4,832 bases of DNA from IMG/VR virus record IMGVR_UViG_2579778650_000007, positions 1 to 4,832 of that record; one strand, 5' to 3'. The notes beneath the pieces are model-generated. The model saw only the letters and a program-made list of their open reading frames with translations. It was not told where the DNA came from and made no database searches. Shown in pieces: positions 1 to 4,832 of this stretch; within the stretch, counting starts at the first letter, position 1, and every line of letters starts with the position of its first letter. Source of the stretch: a virus (Duplodnaviria > Heunggongvirae > Uroviricota > Caudoviricetes). The position numbers and the translations under genes were made by a program.

Positions 1-295
1 CGGTATCGTGGCAACGGCGGATGATGCGGACGCGAAGCTGTTCCCGCTGAACAAGCCCACACTGCTGACCCGCGTCAATGACGTGCTGGGAAAATGCGGA
101 ACAACGGGGACGCTTTATCGTGCGCTTAAGGCCATCGCAGACCAGGTGAGCACAAAGGTGATCGTCGTTCGCGTGGCTGAACACAAAGAAGAAGACGGAA
201 ATGGCAGTATATCGGGGCAGGCGATGATCGCATCGTGCTTTCTGGTGTGCTTTATCCTGAAATCACAGGTGGCGAAGTGTCGCTGTCGCTGCTGA
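1..295 (+). pseudogene. 5' fragment of a P2 gpFI-like tail sheath gene (frame 2, open to the window start; the true start lies upstream of the window). Sheath similarity ends near 200, after which the frame runs about 30 unrelated codons to a stop at 293-295.
   Basis: Frame-2 translation GIVATADDADAKLFPLNKPTLLTRVNDVLGKCGTTGTLYRALKAIADQVSTKVIVVRVAEHKEEDGNG resembles the N-terminal region of P2 tail sheath FI as I recall it (..DADAETFPLNKPVLITNV..GTL..LQAIADQ..). Only about 70 aa of a roughly 390-aa protein family are present. No search was run. Confidence 0.55.
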
Positions 296-573
296 CCACG
301 CAGGCGTATACAGGACGCCCCTGGCCTCTGATTGATGGCGTCGGACAGATTTACGGCATGTATGTACTGACTGAAACGAATACGACCCGCTCCGAGTTTG
401 ATCGCTACGGTAAGGCGAAAAAGATAGAATTTTCACTGACACTTGAACGCTGTGATGAGGATTTGCGGGAGCGCCTGCAATCCTCATCGTTCAGTGATAT
501 GCTGTCCGGCTTCAAAGATAAGGTCACATCATCCCTTAACAGCGCGGCCAGCTCCGTTAAAGGGCTGTTTTGA
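199..573 (+). pseudogene. 3' portion of a P2 gpU-like tail protein gene (frame 1). There is no in-frame ATG; the ORF track starts it at GTG 235, but the similarity begins upstream at about 199-205. It is joined out of frame to the sheath fragment.
   Basis: Frame-1 translation KWQYIGAGDDRIVLSGVLYPEITGG..WPLIDGVGQIYGMYVLTE..KKIEFSLTLERCDE matches my recollection of P2 gpU (..FQFLGVGEENITLAGVLYPELTGG..WPLLDGTGMIYGMYVI..RKIDFTLSLTRVDE). Frame 1 has stops at 178-180 and further upstream, so the N-terminal ~37 codons of a gpU are missing. Confidence 0.5.
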
Positions 574-580
574 TTAACGC

Positions 581-610
581 AAAACCGCTAATGGTCAGAT
601 TAGCGGTTTT
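581..610. terminator. Bidirectional intrinsic terminator between the convergent gpU-fragment and invertase genes
   Basis: Perfect inverted repeat AAAACCGCTAAT (581-592), loop GGTCAG, ATTAGCGGTTTT (599-610). It is followed by a T-rich run on the plus strand (CATTTTCC), and the stem itself ends in TTTT on either strand. The invertase stop codon (600-602, minus) lies inside the stem. Confidence 0.55.
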
Positions 611-1199
611 CATTTTCCTGAGTCTGCCTGGTTGTTTCTTCAGCCTGTATATCGCCTACAGGGTGATAACGATAAATCGTCGATATGCCGATGTCGTAAA
701 TGATCGCCAGTTGTTTCCTGTCATGACCGTTTTTAATCAGCCTCGCTATTTGCTCGTGTTGTTCTTTTGTCAACTTCGGGCGACGTCCGCCAATGCGTCC
801 TTGTGCGCGTGCTGCTGCCAGCCCGGCCAGTGTACGCTCTACAATTAATTCACGTTCCATTTCGGCTAAAGCTCCCATGACGTGAAAAAAGAAACGCCCC
901 ATGGGTGTTGATGTGTCAATGCTGTCCGTTAGACTACGGAAATTAACACCTTTTTCCCGCAATTCCTCAATAAGCGTGATCAGGTGTTTCATACTTCTGC
1001 CCAGTCTGTCCAGCTTCCAGACAACCAGCGTATCTCCTTCTGATAGCGTTCTGAGCAGTTTTTTCAATCCCGGTCTGGCTGATTTCGTTCCGCTGATTTT
1101 ATCTTCAAAAATCAGTTCACATCCTGCGCACTCCAGCGCGTTACGCTGCAATTCTGTATTCTGGTCATTTGTTGATACGCGGACATAGCCAATAAGCAT
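600..1199 (-). CDS. Serine-recombinase DNA invertase of the Gin/Pin/Cin/Hin family (199 aa)
   Basis: N-terminus MLIGYVRVSTNDQNTELQRNALECAGCELIFEDKISG..TLVVWKLDRLGRSMKHL..GVNFRSLTDSIDTSTPMGRFFFHVMGALAEMERELIVERT is near-identical to the resolvase/invertase catalytic domain, with the catalytic Ser at position 9. The C-terminus (GRRPKLTKEQHEQIARLIKNGHDRKQLAIIYDIGISTIYRY) is the HTH DNA-binding domain. A possible Shine-Dalgarno (AGGGGA) lies upstream of the ATG at 1197-1199. Confidence 0.93.
   Translation of the reverse strand: MLIGYVRVSTNDQNTELQRNALECAGCELIFEDKISGTKSARPGLKKLLRTLSEGDTLVVWKLDRLGRSMKHLITLIEELREKGVNFRSLTDSIDTSTPMGRFFFHVMGALAEMERELIVERTLAGLAAARAQGRIGGRRPKLTKEQHEQIARLIKNGHDRKQLAIIYDIGISTIYRYHPVGDIQAEETTRQTQENENR
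1125..1180. promoter_or_regulatory. Predicted Fis-dependent recombinational enhancer (sis-like) inside the 5' coding region of the invertase gene
   Basis: Placed by analogy only. In the Hin, Gin and Cin systems the enhancer lies within the first ~100-170 bp of the invertase gene. The minus-strand sequence here (GTATCAACAAATGACCAGAATACAGAATTGCAGCGTAACGCGCTGGAG) closely parallels the hin enhancer region as I recall it. Fis sites were not individually resolved. Confidence 0.3.
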
Positions 1200-1226
1200 G
1201 ATGGATCCCCTGAATAAAAACCGGGG

Positions 1227-1625
1227 ATGATGCCAGTTAGCCGTAATCTCTGCATTTTCTTAAACGTTGGTTTAGGAGAAGCGGCAAAACGGAATGTGGG
1301 CACAGGAGATAATCAGATACCGGATATGGGAGCATTCGCTTCTGGTTCGGGATGGTTCAGGCTACCAGGTGGATATATTGTTCAGTTTGGCACTTTTGCA
1401 GGAAACACGACCCGCTTTATCAGTGGACACTTCCCTATACCATTCCCTAATCAGCCGATGGTTTCAGTCAGTGTTATGTCTGATGCCGTTCAGTCAGACC
1501 CGTCGATTCCTGCCCCGCAGGTTTTGTCTGTAAATTTTGAACATATCAGTAATTCAGCGTGGCGTGTGGCAACCAGTGATATCTCACAGCAATACAGATT
1601 CAGTTATATTTCGATAGGACGGTAG
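1227..1625 (+). CDS. Alternative tail-fibre C-terminal cassette (Sv'-like), silent in the present orientation. The functional part is 1281..1625 (114 aa after the shared GLGE); the ATG at 1227 probably only opens the frame.
   Basis: The translation carries ..NVGLGE immediately followed by a divergent C-terminal domain (AAKRNVGTGDNQ..YRFSYISIGR). GLGE is encoded exactly on the crossover site and is shared with the tail fibre at aa 379-382. The stop at 1623-1625 is 2 nt before the start of the downstream chaperone gene. Confidence 0.7.
   Translation: MMPVSRNLCIFLNVGLGEAAKRNVGTGDNQIPDMGAFASGSGWFRLPGGYIVQFGTFAGNTTRFISGHFPIPFPNQPMVSVSVMSDAVQSDPSIPAPQVLSVNFEHISNSAWRVATSDISQQYRFSYISIGR
1255..1280. 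other. Invertase crossover site, invertase-proximal (gix/pix-like, 26 bp, central dinucleotide TT at 1267-1268)
   Basis: TTTTCTTAAACG TT GGTTTAGGAGAA. The inner half-site (rc TTCTCCTAAACC) fits the invertase half-site consensus TTATCnAAAACC. It lies about 55 bp upstream of the invertase start and overlaps the codons V-G-L-G-E of the plus-strand cassette. Confidence 0.75.
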
Positions 1626-1627
1626 AA

Positions 1628-2068
1628 ATGCAGAAATATATTTTCAGTGCCGATAAAAATGCGTTTTTCCCTGTGGAGCTTAAAATCGCTTATCAGGAAT
1701 CCGGCGAATGGCCCGATGATGGAATCGAAATTGACGACACTGTTGCTGCCGAATTTATGAAGGAAGCACCAGAAGGAAAATACAGAGGTGTCATCGACGG
1801 AATGCCTGCATGGATTGATATTCCACCGCCAACTCATGAGGAACAAATTGCCGCAGCCGAACTGAAAAAGCAGCAATTGATTAATCAGGTCAACGAATAC
1901 ATAAACAGTAAGCAATGGCCTGGTAAAGCGGCGATTGGTCGCCTGAAAGGTGAGGAACTGGTGCAATATAATTTGTGGCTGGATTATCTGGACGCACTGG
2001 AACTGGTCGATACTTCCGGTGCGCCAGATATTGAATGGCCTACGCCTCCGGCAGTTCAGGCCAGATGA
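1628..2068 (+). CDS. Tail-fibre assembly chaperone (Tfa/gpG/U'-like, 146 aa), cognate to the alternative cassette
   Basis: ATG at 1628 preceded by AGGACGG. The C-terminus VDTSGAPDIEWPTPP has the conserved Tfa motif DTSxAPDIEWP. It lies inside the invertible segment and is co-oriented with the alternative cassette. Confidence 0.85.
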   Translation: MQKYIFSADKNAFFPVELKIAYQESGEWPDDGIEIDDTVAAEFMKEAPEGKYRGVIDGMPAWIDIPPPTHEEQIAAAELKKQQLINQVNEYINSKQWPGKAAIGRLKGEELVQYNLWLDYLDALELVDTSGAPDIEWPTPPAVQAR

Positions 2069-2633
2069 CATCCGGTGCGGTGCTGGTATCTGTTGCCGTC
2101 ACCGCGTCAATATAATCCAGCACAGCGTTAAGTCGGGTGTTTTCTGGCTGCGTCAGCTTCCGCACGGCCTGTAATTTCAGTTGAATCAGACTGATGGAAG
2201 CCATTGCAGCATCAATCAGCGACTGGCGCTTTACTTCTGCCGCGTCTAGTGCGGCGCTATGCTGTGCCTCGGTATCCGTCACCCATTTCTCACCATCCCA
2301 TTTATCGTATGGCGTTAACGGTGAAAGCGTGACATAACCGTCTTTGATGGCACCGATATAATCCACTGTAACAGCTGCGCCATTTTCGATTGAGTAAACA
2401 GTCTCATTGCGGTGGTCTTCTTCATGGCTCCATCCCTTACCCGTAAATACTGCCACTCTTCCCGGAATGTATTCGCCCGGGTCAATACCAGTGGAACAAG
2501 CGGGCATACTTACGCCAGTATTAATATATTCATCAGACCAGCCAGTATATTCATACGTAACTGCCTCATAATAAAAACAACGCATATTACCCGGTACTGT
2601 AGCCAGCCCATTTTCATCAAAAACAGGTTTCAT
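2040..2633 (-). CDS. Tail-fibre assembly chaperone (Tfa/P2 gpG/Mu U-like, 197 aa), cognate to the currently expressed fibre tip
   Basis: The C-terminus VTATDTSTAPDVIWPELPEA has the Tfa motif. Its start codon overlaps the tail-fibre stop (TAATG at 2631-2635 on the minus strand), suggesting translational coupling. The central part (GKGWSHEEDHRNETVY..DKWDGEKWVTDTEAQ) resembles lambda/P2-type Tfa proteins. Confidence 0.88.
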   Translation of the reverse strand: MKPVFDENGLATVPGNMRCFYYEAVTYEYTGWSDEYINTGVSMPACSTGIDPGEYIPGRVAVFTGKGWSHEEDHRNETVYSIENGAAVTVDYIGAIKDGYVTLSPLTPYDKWDGEKWVTDTEAQHSAALDAAEVKRQSLIDAAMASISLIQLKLQAVRKLTQPENTRLNAVLDYIDAVTATDTSTAPDVIWPELPEA

Positions 2634-4297
2634 TATTTAGCCCTCACTAGAAAGTTAAATGCAATATTTCGTGGGCGGGTTTCTGTACCTACATTTCCAC
2701 TAATTTCACCATAACGTTTAACGCTACGAGAGCTAATAGCTCGTAGTGAGGAAGGCACCCTAAGACCGGGTTCGTCCGTTTTAACTATTCCCCCGTCACC
2801 ATATGTAGCCAGTATTCCTGGGTTGACTCCTTCCCGTGTACTTCCTGCGACAAGCCCGTCCCCCGTCCACAATTCCATATTGTGTGCATGATCCATAATT
2901 GTGTGTGATTGCCCTGAAAGTAGGGTACGTCCGACATCAATCCCGCGTCCGTCATCCCAGATACGAATGAAATCACCGCGTGCGTCAGGTAATGCCAGCG
3001 CCGGAAACACTTTCGCCAGCACAGGGTAATCAGTGGCAGAGAATTTCGCGCCGTTGAACTTCAAAAACACCATGCTGGACCAGCTATCGATTACGGTATC
3101 TGGCATTGCTGCGGACGGCCAGAAGAACGGAACGCCAATAGCTGGAGCACCTTCTCCCAAACCAAGGTAATCAAGAACTCCCTGAGTGCTGGTTTTACCA
3201 AGAATGGCACGTCCAACACTTGTCAACGCGGTTAACGCGGCACGATCTGCCCCTGTAAAATATGGGAGTTTATCTGCTGATGTAGCAAGCTCCGCCAGCG
3301 CCGTCAGGGTGGCATCCTTCGGTTGCTTACCCGCAAGCGCGTTAGTCATGGTGGTCGCAAAATTCGGGTCATTGCCCAGCGCCGCAGCCAGTTCGTTCAG
3401 CGTGTTCAGTGCATCAGGTGACGAATCTACAAGTGCGGCAATCGCAGCCATAACGAAAGCCGTGCTTGCGATCTGGGTACTATTAGTCCCCTGTGGCGCT
3501 GTTGGTGTTGTTGGCGTTCCGGTCAGTGCCGGGCTGTTTAATGGTGCTTTCTTGTTCGTTTCATCCATTACCGCCTTAACAGCTTTTGGTGTCGCTGCCA
3601 GCGTTTCAGACGTGCTGTTCGTGGCGCTACTGAGCTGAACAATCCCTTTTTGTGTAGTGGTGGCGTTCTGGGCGGTATATTTCCCGTTAGCCAGGTCATA
3701 TGCAGCCTTAACCGCTTTCGGTGTTGCGGCCAGTGTTTCTGATTCACTGTTAATTGCACTGCTTAACTGAGTAAAACCTTTTACGGTCAGCGAGGCGTCC
3801 GGGTGACGTCGTGACTGTTCGTGCTCTGATATTTTATCATCCACATATTTGCGGGTTGCCAGAACCACAGACGGGTCGATTTTCAGCGTGATAGCTTCGG
3901 TGTTCGTGACAACCAGAATCATGCGGATAGTCTGGGTGCGTCCACTGCCTTCCTGCAACTGCGGTTTGTACGTTTCCGGGCAGTTTGCCACCGCAATGAG
4001 TACACCTTCATCATCATAAAGACCAATCTCACGGATCCAGAATCCTCCCTCGTTTTCAGGGATGATTTGCTCCGCAATAATCTGGCTCTGATTGTTAGGG
4101 TCAACACTCAGAAGATTCAGCGGTGCAATGCGTTTCTGGTTAATCAGTTTTGTTTGTGCAGGGTCTGGTGTTGGTAACACACCATTTGCATCACCAACGG
4201 CCATTTGCGTCAGATTCAGCTTACTGCCGAGCATCGTCGCGTTAGCCAGTCGTGCCGCGCCCTGATTAGTCAGAATGGCGTAGTATTTCACTGTCAT
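2633..4297 (-). CDS. Tail fibre protein, P2 gpH-like (554 aa): constant N-terminal part aa 1-382 (coded at 3152..4297), variable C-terminal receptor-binding part aa 383-554 (coded at 2636..3151, inside the invertible segment)
   Basis: N-terminus (..MAVGDANGVLPTPDP..GGFWIREIGLYDDEGVLIAVAN..YKPQLQEGSGR) and the paired shaft repeats QLSSA(I/T)NS(E/T)SETLAATPKAVKA match my recollection of P2 gpH. The start overlaps the gpI-like stop (ATGA at 4294-4297). Confidence 0.93.
   Translation of the reverse strand: MTVKYYAILTNQGAARLANATMLGSKLNLTQMAVGDANGVLPTPDPAQTKLINQKRIAPLNLLSVDPNNQSQIIAEQIIPENEGGFWIREIGLYDDEGVLIAVANCPETYKPQLQEGSGRTQTIRMILVVTNTEAITLKIDPSVVLATRKYVDDKISEHEQSRRHPDASLTVKGFTQLSSAINSESETLAATPKAVKAAYDLANGKYTAQNATTTQKGIVQLSSATNSTSETLAATPKAVKAVMDETNKKAPLNSPALTGTPTTPTAPQGTNSTQIASTAFVMAAIAALVDSSPDALNTLNELAAALGNDPNFATTMTNALAGKQPKDATLTALAELATSADKLPYFTGADRAALTALTSVGRAILGKTSTQGVLDYLGLGEGAPAIGVPFFWPSAAMPDTVIDSWSSMVFLKFNGAKFSATDYPVLAKVFPALALPDARGDFIRIWDDGRGIDVGRTLLSGQSHTIMDHAHNMELWTGDGLVAGSTREGVNPGILATYGDGGIVKTDEPGLRVPSSLRAISSRSVKRYGEISGNVGTETRPRNIAFNFLVRAK
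3152..3177. other. Invertase crossover site, distal (gix/pix-like, 26 bp, central AA at 3164-3165), located inside the tail-fibre gene
   Basis: TTCTCCCAAACC AA GGTAATCAAGAA. Positions 3152-3165 match the reverse complement of 1267-1280 at 13 of 14 positions. The site encodes L-G-L-G-E (aa 378-382) of the fibre. Confidence 0.75.
3572..3772. repeat. Tandem direct repeat (two copies of about 69 bp, 132 bp apart) encoding the fibre shaft repeat QLSSAxNSxSETLAATPKAVKA
   Basis: 3704-3772 and 3572-3640 encode aa 176-198 and aa 220-242 of the tail fibre and are visibly similar at the DNA level (GCCTTAAC.GCTTT.GGTGT.GC.GCCAG.GTTTC.GA..). Confidence 0.6.
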
Positions 4298-4832
4298 GCG
4301 TTTACTCTCAGATTATCAATTAAATGAATGGCCGGGGCAGGGAAATAATCCCCTTCGACAATAATGGACTCCGGGGTGTAGGGATAAACCGTCAGGGCAT
4401 CGCCGTGATAGCATCCCGTACCAACGAAAATCTTTCCGTTCACACTCAGGCTGATCGCCAGCCCCGTCAGATGGCGACTTACTGGTTTTGCATCCGCAAT
4501 AAGGCGCTCAAGTTCCTGATACATTTCATCGGTGATGCCCTGATCAAGTACTCCGACAACAATGCGAAATGTTCCCGGCTCCTCGTTGAGTTGCCACCAC
4601 TCCTTTACTTCAATCAGGTAGCCGAGAGGCTCCACGGCTCTTCGCAGTGCGCTGATGGTCCCTTTGTGTCGGTGTATCAGCCATGCATCACGAATCACCT
4701 GTCGCTTTGTCTCTTCCGGCCAGTTGCGATCCCAGTGGTCAACGGAAAATGCCCAGGCGAGATAAGGCAGCAGATGCACCGGGCAGGTGTCCGGCGACCA
4801 CAGCGTGTTGAGGTCTACCGGGATGTCTGTAA
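4294..4832 (-). CDS. Baseplate protein, P2 gpI-like; 5'-partial, the gene continues beyond the window end
   Basis: The frame is open from 4832 with no stop. The translation ..IPVDLNTLWSPDTCPVHLLPYLAWAFSVDHWDRNWPEETKRQVIRDAWLIHRHKGTISALRRAVEPLGYLIEVKEWW.. matches my recollection of P2 gpI (..LLPWLAWAFSVDRWDEKWPEATKRAVIRDAYFIHCHKGTIGAIRRVVEPLGYLINVTEWW..). The GTG at 4779 used by the ORF track is internal. Confidence 0.88.
   Translation of the reverse strand, partial: TDIPVDLNTLWSPDTCPVHLLPYLAWAFSVDHWDRNWPEETKRQVIRDAWLIHRHKGTISALRRAVEPLGYLIEVKEWWQLNEEPGTFRIVVGVLDQGITDEMYQELERLIADAKPVSRHLTGLAISLSVNGKIFVGTGCYHGDALTVYPYTPESIIVEGDYFPAPAIHLIDNLRVNA

Follow-up and report, generated by a model that had tools for sequence, protein, structure and literature searches.

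Switches of the tail-fiber tip by site-specific DNA inversion have been described in phage Mu (the G segment and its invertase Gin), in phage P1 (the C segment and Cin), and in e14 (the P segment and PinE), a prophage of Escherichia coli K-12. DNA invertases are also found in P2-like phages. A survey of these phages reported that the Z/fun hotspot often codes for a DNA invertase and that the neighboring genes are inverted, and sequencing and polymerase chain reaction have demonstrated phase variation by inversion at two P2-like prophages of the enteropathogenic E. coli (EPEC) strain E2348/69 (PMC4272514). Fin, the invertase of Fels-2, is known to act on the H segment of Salmonella. Canonical P2, in contrast, is without an invertase and has Z/fun at that place. 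Here we describe a 4,832-nucleotide stretch of prophage DNA (the window hereafter), in which an invertase gene, two crossover sites, and two alternative pairs of fiber tip and chaperone very probably act together as a switch of the Gin/Cin/Pin type, which exchanges the tail-fiber tip of a P2-family phage by site-specific inversion. The window is the entire contig JICC01000160.1 of the typical EPEC isolate S6662 (O111, EPEC2 lineage, Kenya), whose assembly is a short-read draft produced from Illumina reads with Velvet; the contig was recognized through an exact protein match to the truncated gpU ORF. The prophage that hosts the locus belongs to the P2 family (Peduoviridae) and is of the Gemsvirus type.

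Results

Crossover sites and the invertible segment

Two 26-bp crossover sites of the pix/gix type are found in the window in inverted orientation, one near the invertase gene and the other inside the open reading frame (ORF) of the fiber (Table 1). A search with a pix-type pattern gives just these two matches in the window and none in 200 shuffles, and a half-site weight matrix scores the two sites at 27–31 bits versus at most 5.5 bits for everything else in the window. The proximal site is identical to the pinE-proximal pix site of e14 at 24 of the 26 positions, and the distal site, which reads TTCTTGATTACCTTGGTTTGGGAGAA as the reverse complement of 3152–3177, is identical to the distal e14 site at 22 of 26. 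Aligned in register, each of them also agrees with Mu gix at 18 of 26 positions. The central TT is the same at both sites, so that inversion is possible and its product is not mismatched. A shorter core pattern, AAACSWWGGTTT, recovers the proximal site alone; the outer half of the distal site contains TTACC and so escapes the pattern.

Two candidates for additional sites were rejected. A third crossover site, as in the shufflon of one E2348/69 prophage, was sought with the pattern and the half-site matrix, and these scans give two strong sites only. The 18-nucleotide inverted repeat at 1978–1995 and 2104–2121 (89% complementary) codes for the C-terminal LDYLDA/LDYIDA shared by the two chaperones.

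The two sites are in the same codon phase. When the segment 1268–3164 (1,897 bp) is inverted in silico with exchange between the central dinucleotides, the fiber ORF remains uninterrupted and changes from 554 to 496 residues, the constant 378 residues being joined to tip B through ...VLDYLGLGEAAKRN..., and chaperone B starts two bases past the new fiber stop. The sequence-only reading of this locus had reported, from a check by hand, that inversion introduces no frameshift, and the computed product agrees with it.

Orientation of the segment in related isolates and genomes

The window carries at positions 201/202 the junction of a deletion, described below, which serves here as a marker of descent. 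Two sister isolates of S6662, S5274 and S7380, have this junction together with a junction of the other orientation of the segment. In S5274, the 1,197-bp contig JICB01000146.1 reads across the deletion junction, the invertase gene, and the proximal site directly into tip A, so that all of these, the flipped junction included, stand without conflict on a single contig. In S7380, contig JICD01000138.1 contains the 201/202 junction and the entire segment, followed by tip A running into the invertase flank. Both sister junctions match the in-silico flipped sequence base for base. The position that distinguishes the two crossover sites in their inner halves (G/A) should be noted. The hybrid sites of the sisters carry G at this single position, which locates the exchange between 1268 and 1274. 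The three isolates are at least 99.9% identical across the deletion, which they have in common, and yet differ in orientation, so that the inversion is later than the deletion. The segment evidently flips in this lineage, and the sequenced culture of S7380 probably held both states.

At 3147–3222, contig JICD01000138.1 is a hairpin-like chimera, in which the segment is read one way and then passes into the junction of the opposite orientation. It exemplifies how contig ends and mis-joins can arise from an invertible segment in short-read assemblies.

The cassette adjoins the invertase gene in complete E. coli genomes as well, where it is 96–98% identical and lies in either orientation; the homology breakpoints in these genomes fall at window positions 1262–1267 and 3165–3169. 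The flipped cassette is present in E. coli KL53, where tip B is in register within a prophage of true P2 gene order, and in E. coli GF31, where the prophage is of the same Gemsvirus type as that of the window.

Gene organization

The gene map was drawn from the ORF listing and Pfam scans of the window, and the features are collected in Table 1. An Rfam scan of the window for structured RNAs gave no hits.

Table 1. Features of the window. Positions are those of the window; E-values are from Pfam profiles.
Feature	Positions	Strand	Basis and remarks
Tail sheath fragment (gpFI homologue, about codons 29–96)	2..201	+	Gp18_domIII_N, E = 3e-12
gpU tail gene, 3' part (about codon 40 to stop)	202..573	+	Phage_P2_GpU, profile positions 47–120
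Hairpin with 12-bp stem	581..610		Terminator scan; between the convergent gpU and invertase genes
DNA invertase, 199 residues, small serine recombinase of the Pin/Gin/Cin group	600..1199	-	Resolvase, E = 6e-52; HTH_7, E = 1e-12; just outside the invertible segment
Candidate Fis enhancer in the invertase 5' coding region, nucleotides +19 to +90	1110..1181	-	Homology to the annotated P1 Cin enhancer
Invertase-proximal crossover site, pix/gix type, 26 bp	1255..1280	+	Central TT 1267–1268; TTTTCTTAAACGTTGGTTTAGGAGAA
Alternative fiber tip B	1269..1625	+	Gp53-like_C domain; within ORF 1227–1625
Chaperone B, tail fiber assembly protein, 146 residues	1628..2068	+	Caudo_TAP, E = 9e-34; cognate to tip B
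Chaperone A, tail fiber assembly protein, 197 residues	2040..2633	-	Caudo_TAP, E = 1.5e-24; cognate to tip A
Fiber ORF, 554 residues	2633..4297	-	Phage_tail_fib N-terminal domain (P2-type tail-collar fiber)
Fiber tip A, variable C terminus now fused (about residues 379–554)	2633..3164	-	Continuous 554-residue ORF
Distal crossover site, 26 bp	3152..3177	-	Inside the fiber ORF; central TT 3165–3164; encodes ...DYLGLGE...
Constant N-terminal part of the fiber, P2 gpH type, residues 1–378	3165..4297	-	Phage_tail_fib, E = 2e-62, and fiber repeats
gpI baseplate/tail protein	4294..4832	-	Tail_P2_I, E = 6e-48; continues past the window end

The elements between the two sites are arranged in the order tip B, chaperone B, chaperone A, tip A, and thus form two convergent pairs of tip and chaperone. 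The 3' ends of the convergent chaperone genes overlap by 29 nucleotides (2040–2068). The ATG of chaperone A overlaps the fiber stop (TAATG). This overlap, together with the gap of two nucleotides ahead of chaperone B in the flipped state, suggests that the chaperones are translationally coupled to the fiber in both states. Tip B is silent in the present orientation, because it is without an N terminus or a promoter of its own. The lengths of 172 and 114 residues given earlier for the tips A and B count the residues past the 26-bp sites (3151–2636 and 1281–1622, respectively). The same reading described the long tip and its chaperone as expressed; they are in register with the fiber ORF, and the word can mean no more than that.

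A comparison with the fiber proteins of Mu, e14, and P2, as had been proposed, relates tip A and the chaperones to e14 Stf and Tfa proteins and the shaft to P2 H. Tip A shares 43% identity with the variable portion of e14 StfE; for the chaperones, the identity is 60.5% between A and e14 TfaE and 55.6% between B and e14 TfaP. Residues 26–382 of the fiber are 74.5% identical to residues 27–383 of P2 H, and this homology ends exactly at the crossover codon. The gpI protein is 65% identical to P2 I. The invertase of the Gin/Pin family, the two inverted crossover sites, the tip and chaperone pairs in the order Sv'-U'-U-Sv, and the P2-type nature of gpI and the gpH-like N terminus are thus all found where the sequence-only reading had placed them, as judged from the domains, the pattern search, and homology.

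The invertase

The invertase belongs with the characterized DNA invertases rather than with the resolvases, judging from its sequence. It is 82.5% identical to e14 PinE and 72.8% identical to Mu Gin. Its residues 1–185 align with two crystal structures of Gin, 4M6F and 3UJ3, at E of about 1e-91, whereas the match to gamma-delta resolvase is far weaker (E of about 1e-31). The ORF is intact. The N terminus, MLIGYVRVS9T, is the same as that of Gin, and the catalytic Ser9 is kept.

The basic residues 47, 48, and 51 and Gln151, Arg154, and Leu155 of Hin contact Fis or the enhancer and are reported to be specific to enhancer-dependent invertases (PMC3798978). Their counterparts, K46/K47/R50 and Q150/R153/L154, are present in the invertase of the window, the numbering of which would be offset from that of Hin by one residue.

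At its C terminus, the protein is extended by about 15 acidic and polar residues (...PVGDIQAEETTRQTQENENR), which are missing from PinE (184 residues). The stop codon of the invertase gene falls within the hairpin shared with gpU, and this hairpin is likely to be a bidirectional terminator.

Candidate recombinational enhancer

The coordinates of the enhancer were taken from the GenBank record of P1, in which an "enhancer of Cin-mediated C-segment inversion" is annotated at +19 to +90 of cin. The corresponding stretch of the window, 1110–1181, shows 79–85% nucleotide identity to cin, gin, and pinE (79% to the P1 cin enhancer) and, together with nucleotides +1 to +18, is the most conserved portion of the invertase gene. 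Of the codons that specify the same amino acid as in gin, 67% are also identical as codons within codons 1–40, versus 12–47% beyond. Two Fis-like 15-mers, with their centers at +30 and +78, are 48 bp apart and are kept in the window gene, pinE, gin, and cin. The enhancers of Hin and Gin have the same 48-bp spacing of the Fis sites. Between the proximal Fis-like site and the crossover there are about 97 bp, compared with about 100 bp in Hin (PMC3798978). These sequence features point to a putative enhancer in cis within the invertase gene, and inversion would be expected to depend on Fis and this enhancer.

Loss of tail genes

Relative to E. coli O111:H2 strain 12A, the window lacks 4,917 bp at 201/202 (7084–12000 of the 12A locus, L001, to which the following 12A coordinates also refer). 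Window positions 1–201 correspond to 12A 6883–7083, within the annotated sheath gene (6797–7981), and the sequence from 202 onward corresponds to that from 12A 12001 onward, within the U gene (11884–12372). The deletion takes out the C terminus of the sheath, the tube, E/E', the tape measure, and the N terminus of gpU. The two remaining fragments are mutually out of frame across the join, at which no microhomology was seen, and the sole possible translation start for the gpU remnant is an internal GTG at 235. Sheath and U thus survive only as fragments, and the genes for the tube, E/E', and the tape measure are absent, which leaves the P2-like tail gene set incomplete and the prophage unable to build tails. 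The locus had been described as lying in a P2-like tail module; gpI and gpH are indeed of P2 type, but the module is broken.

Every E. coli match to the window begins at position 202. None of the complete E. coli genomes spans the 201/202 junction, and an exact-match scan for it in contigs representing one genome per species gave no match. The junction is common to three Kenyan EPEC2 isolates and one metagenome scaffold (L009), the latter reaching gpD and ogr. An artificial splice of the window at 201/202 was considered and is ruled out by the identical junction in four independent assemblies.

The lineage of the window does not have the gene order of P2, in which H-G is followed by a co-directional F operon. 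In 12A, in Escherichia phage 500465-2, and in GF31, the block FI-FII-E-E'-T-U as a whole points the opposite way from that in P2, toward the convergent invertase gene, whereas the orientation of gpD and ogr is unchanged. In 12A, the best background hits of the site matrix include those at 6693 (in the D-FI intergenic region, 9.6 bits) and 12351 (at the gpU end, window 552, 5.5 bits), which are the two borders of the inverted block. The inversion of the FI-U block may conceivably be a fossil event at such quasi-sites.

A gix-like sequence in P2 H and the exchange of fiber tips

The position at which the homology between the window fiber and P2 H ends should be noted. Exactly there, codons 375–383 of P2 H (3358–3383 of L008) read TTATCGAATATCTCGGTTTACAGGAA, which is identical to Mu gix at 23 of 26 positions. 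Residues 376–667 of P2 H are 46% identical to Mu S 167–502, and P2 G resembles Mu U even more closely (93% identity). From these similarities, canonical P2 seems to represent a single, frozen arm of a Mu-type cassette that lacks the invertase. The sequence-only reading held that a P2-type fiber had gained the switch. This is not established, given the gix relic in P2 H at the same codon and the Mu S/U-like C terminus and gpG of P2; the change may have been either a gain or a loss of the switch. The crossover site is a seam where phages of different families exchange fiber tips.

The cassette and the invertase gene of many E. coli genomes are 96–98% identical to those of the window, with a similarity that stops exactly at the distal crossover site. 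One cassette is thus joined to different fiber shafts, including those of loci annotated as pinE. Incomplete copies also occur. A truncated copy of the cassette is present in an unrelated myovirus-type prophage, vB_EcoM-606R2. The prophage of GF31 (at about 9100 of L004) is a second, independent defective copy of the type seen in the window. Its match to the flipped cassette breaks off within tip B, and a truncated capsid scaffold gene is annotated next, so that the constant region of the fiber and the genes onward through most of the late region are missing there.

Discussion

In the mechanism that we propose, dimers of the invertase would bind to the two 26-bp sites, and the strands would be exchanged at the central TT with the assistance of a Fis-bound enhancer in the 5' coding region of the invertase gene itself. 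The segment 1268–3164 would flip as a result, and, with one site inside the fiber ORF, the constant gpH-type N terminus (378 residues) would be read into either end of the segment. The present state would give the 554-residue fiber with tip A and chaperone A, and the flipped state the 496-residue fiber with tip B and chaperone B. The local invertase is presumably the catalyst of the inversion, and tips A and B probably bind different receptors.

Several points weigh against this account. The tail genes are deleted, leaving the switch without obvious phenotypic output for this prophage alone. The evidence for the two orientations consists of assembled contigs, which give no ratio within the S6662 culture. 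A sigma-70 promoter scan of the minus strand at 1200–1300, from the ATG of the invertase gene to the proximal site, gave no hit, and expression of the invertase is unproven. Other Pin-type invertases of the same genome could flip the segment in trans. The last two points bear on whether the catalyst is a Pin/Gin-type invertase encoded elsewhere, the local gene being silent or dispensable. Cross-action among such invertases is well documented, and among E. coli genomes with similarity to the window the number of matching places per genome has a median of 2 and reaches 13. The local ORF is nevertheless intact with Ser9 and the Fis-contact residues kept, a homologue of the enhancer is present in cis, and the sites agree at 24/26 and 22/26 positions with those of PinE, the closest characterized relative. 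We consider catalysis from elsewhere in the genome unlikely.

A switch that still flips after the loss of the tail genes might have been co-opted by the host, either as a receptor-blocking fiber or tip that protects against other phages or as a source of alternative fibers for a co-resident P2-like prophage. Tip A and chaperone A are of the StfE/TfaE type, the same deleted remnant is shared by the three isolates and the metagenome scaffold, and the receptor masking reported for PinQ/StfE2 of e14 offers a precedent (PMC12529663). However, the deletion may be recent, and the copies are about 100% identical, so that the intactness of the switch is no sign of selection; moreover, the window contains no promoter dedicated to the fiber gene, which would need a late activator of the Ogr type. 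We regard such a function as quite improbable. Still less credible is a frozen relic, in which the flipped junctions of the sisters would be assembly artifacts at a short inverted repeat and the differences among genomes would be old events. The assemblies are Velvet short-read drafts, and JICD01000138.1 contains junctions of both types in a hairpin-like chimera. The shared repeat, however, is about 15 nucleotides long and is probably too short for a de Bruijn mis-join (the k-mer size is unreported). In JICB01000146.1, the flipped junction is connected without conflict to the deletion junction by way of the invertase gene, the junctions of both sisters equal the predicted recombinant including the hybrid G/A position, every part of the switch is intact, and the three nearly identical isolates share the deletion and differ in orientation. 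A site-specific inversion switch, served by the invertase next to it, is the reading that we prefer.

The locus is a host-range switch of the textbook type at a P2-like site already rich in invertases, and a near-identical copy is annotated in RefSeq. The draft assemblies of the sister isolates provide evidence, without recourse to reads, of flipping after the loss of the tail genes. The breaks of homology at the crossover sites and the fossil gix in P2 H illustrate how such sites act as seams for the exchange of tips. Switches of this kind can also be among the causes of broken and chimeric contigs in draft genomes.

Comparison with known systems

The P segment of e14 (stfP-tfaP/tfaE-stfE) shares with the window the order constant part, tip, chaperone, chaperone', tip', and invertase gene, with the 5' end of the invertase gene facing the proximal site. 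The switch of the window now operates in a tail-less cryptic prophage, like the P segment, which still flips in a defective prophage of E. coli K-12. The constant part of e14 is the N terminus of StfP, whereas that of the window is of the P2 gpH type; tip B of the window, with its Gp53-like_C domain, has no detectable match to e14 StfP; and the invertible segment is 1,897 bp in the window versus 1,797 bp in e14.

The G segment of Mu and the C segment of P1 belong to the same mechanism class as the window and follow the same Sc-Sv-U/U'-Sv' logic. In both phages, the enhancer is likewise in the 5' coding region of the invertase gene, with 79–81% nucleotide identity to that of the window. The Mu S/U type differs from the tips and chaperones of the window, for which there is only a weak match of the chaperone C terminus to Mu U'. 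In P1, it is the 3' end of cin that faces cixL, unlike the arrangement in the window. Mu (Muvirus) and P1 (Punavirus) belong to families other than that of the window's phage.

The switches of P2-like phages and prophages are the nearest in kind. Those of EPEC E2348/69, phage 500465-2, Xuanwuvirus P884B11, the O157:H43 T22 "phage P2", and Fels-2 (Fin) have the same architecture as the window and occupy the same place, between the fiber genes and the F operon at the Z/fun hotspot; the invertases of Xuanwuvirus and of the O157:H43 "P2" phage are also at this place. One of the two loci in E2348/69 is a three-site shufflon, whereas the window has a simple two-site switch. The kind is thus already known from near-identical annotated loci in complete E. 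coli genomes and in Peduoviridae phages. In Escherichia phage 500465-2 (Peduoviridae, Gemsvirus), the locus is 93.7% identical and a DNA invertase is annotated. In E. coli O111:H2 strain 12A, the locus is 99.9% identical over window positions 202–4832, all its genes are annotated, and there is no deletion. What distinguishes the copy in the window from the other P2-like switches is the 4,917-bp deletion from the sheath gene to gpU.

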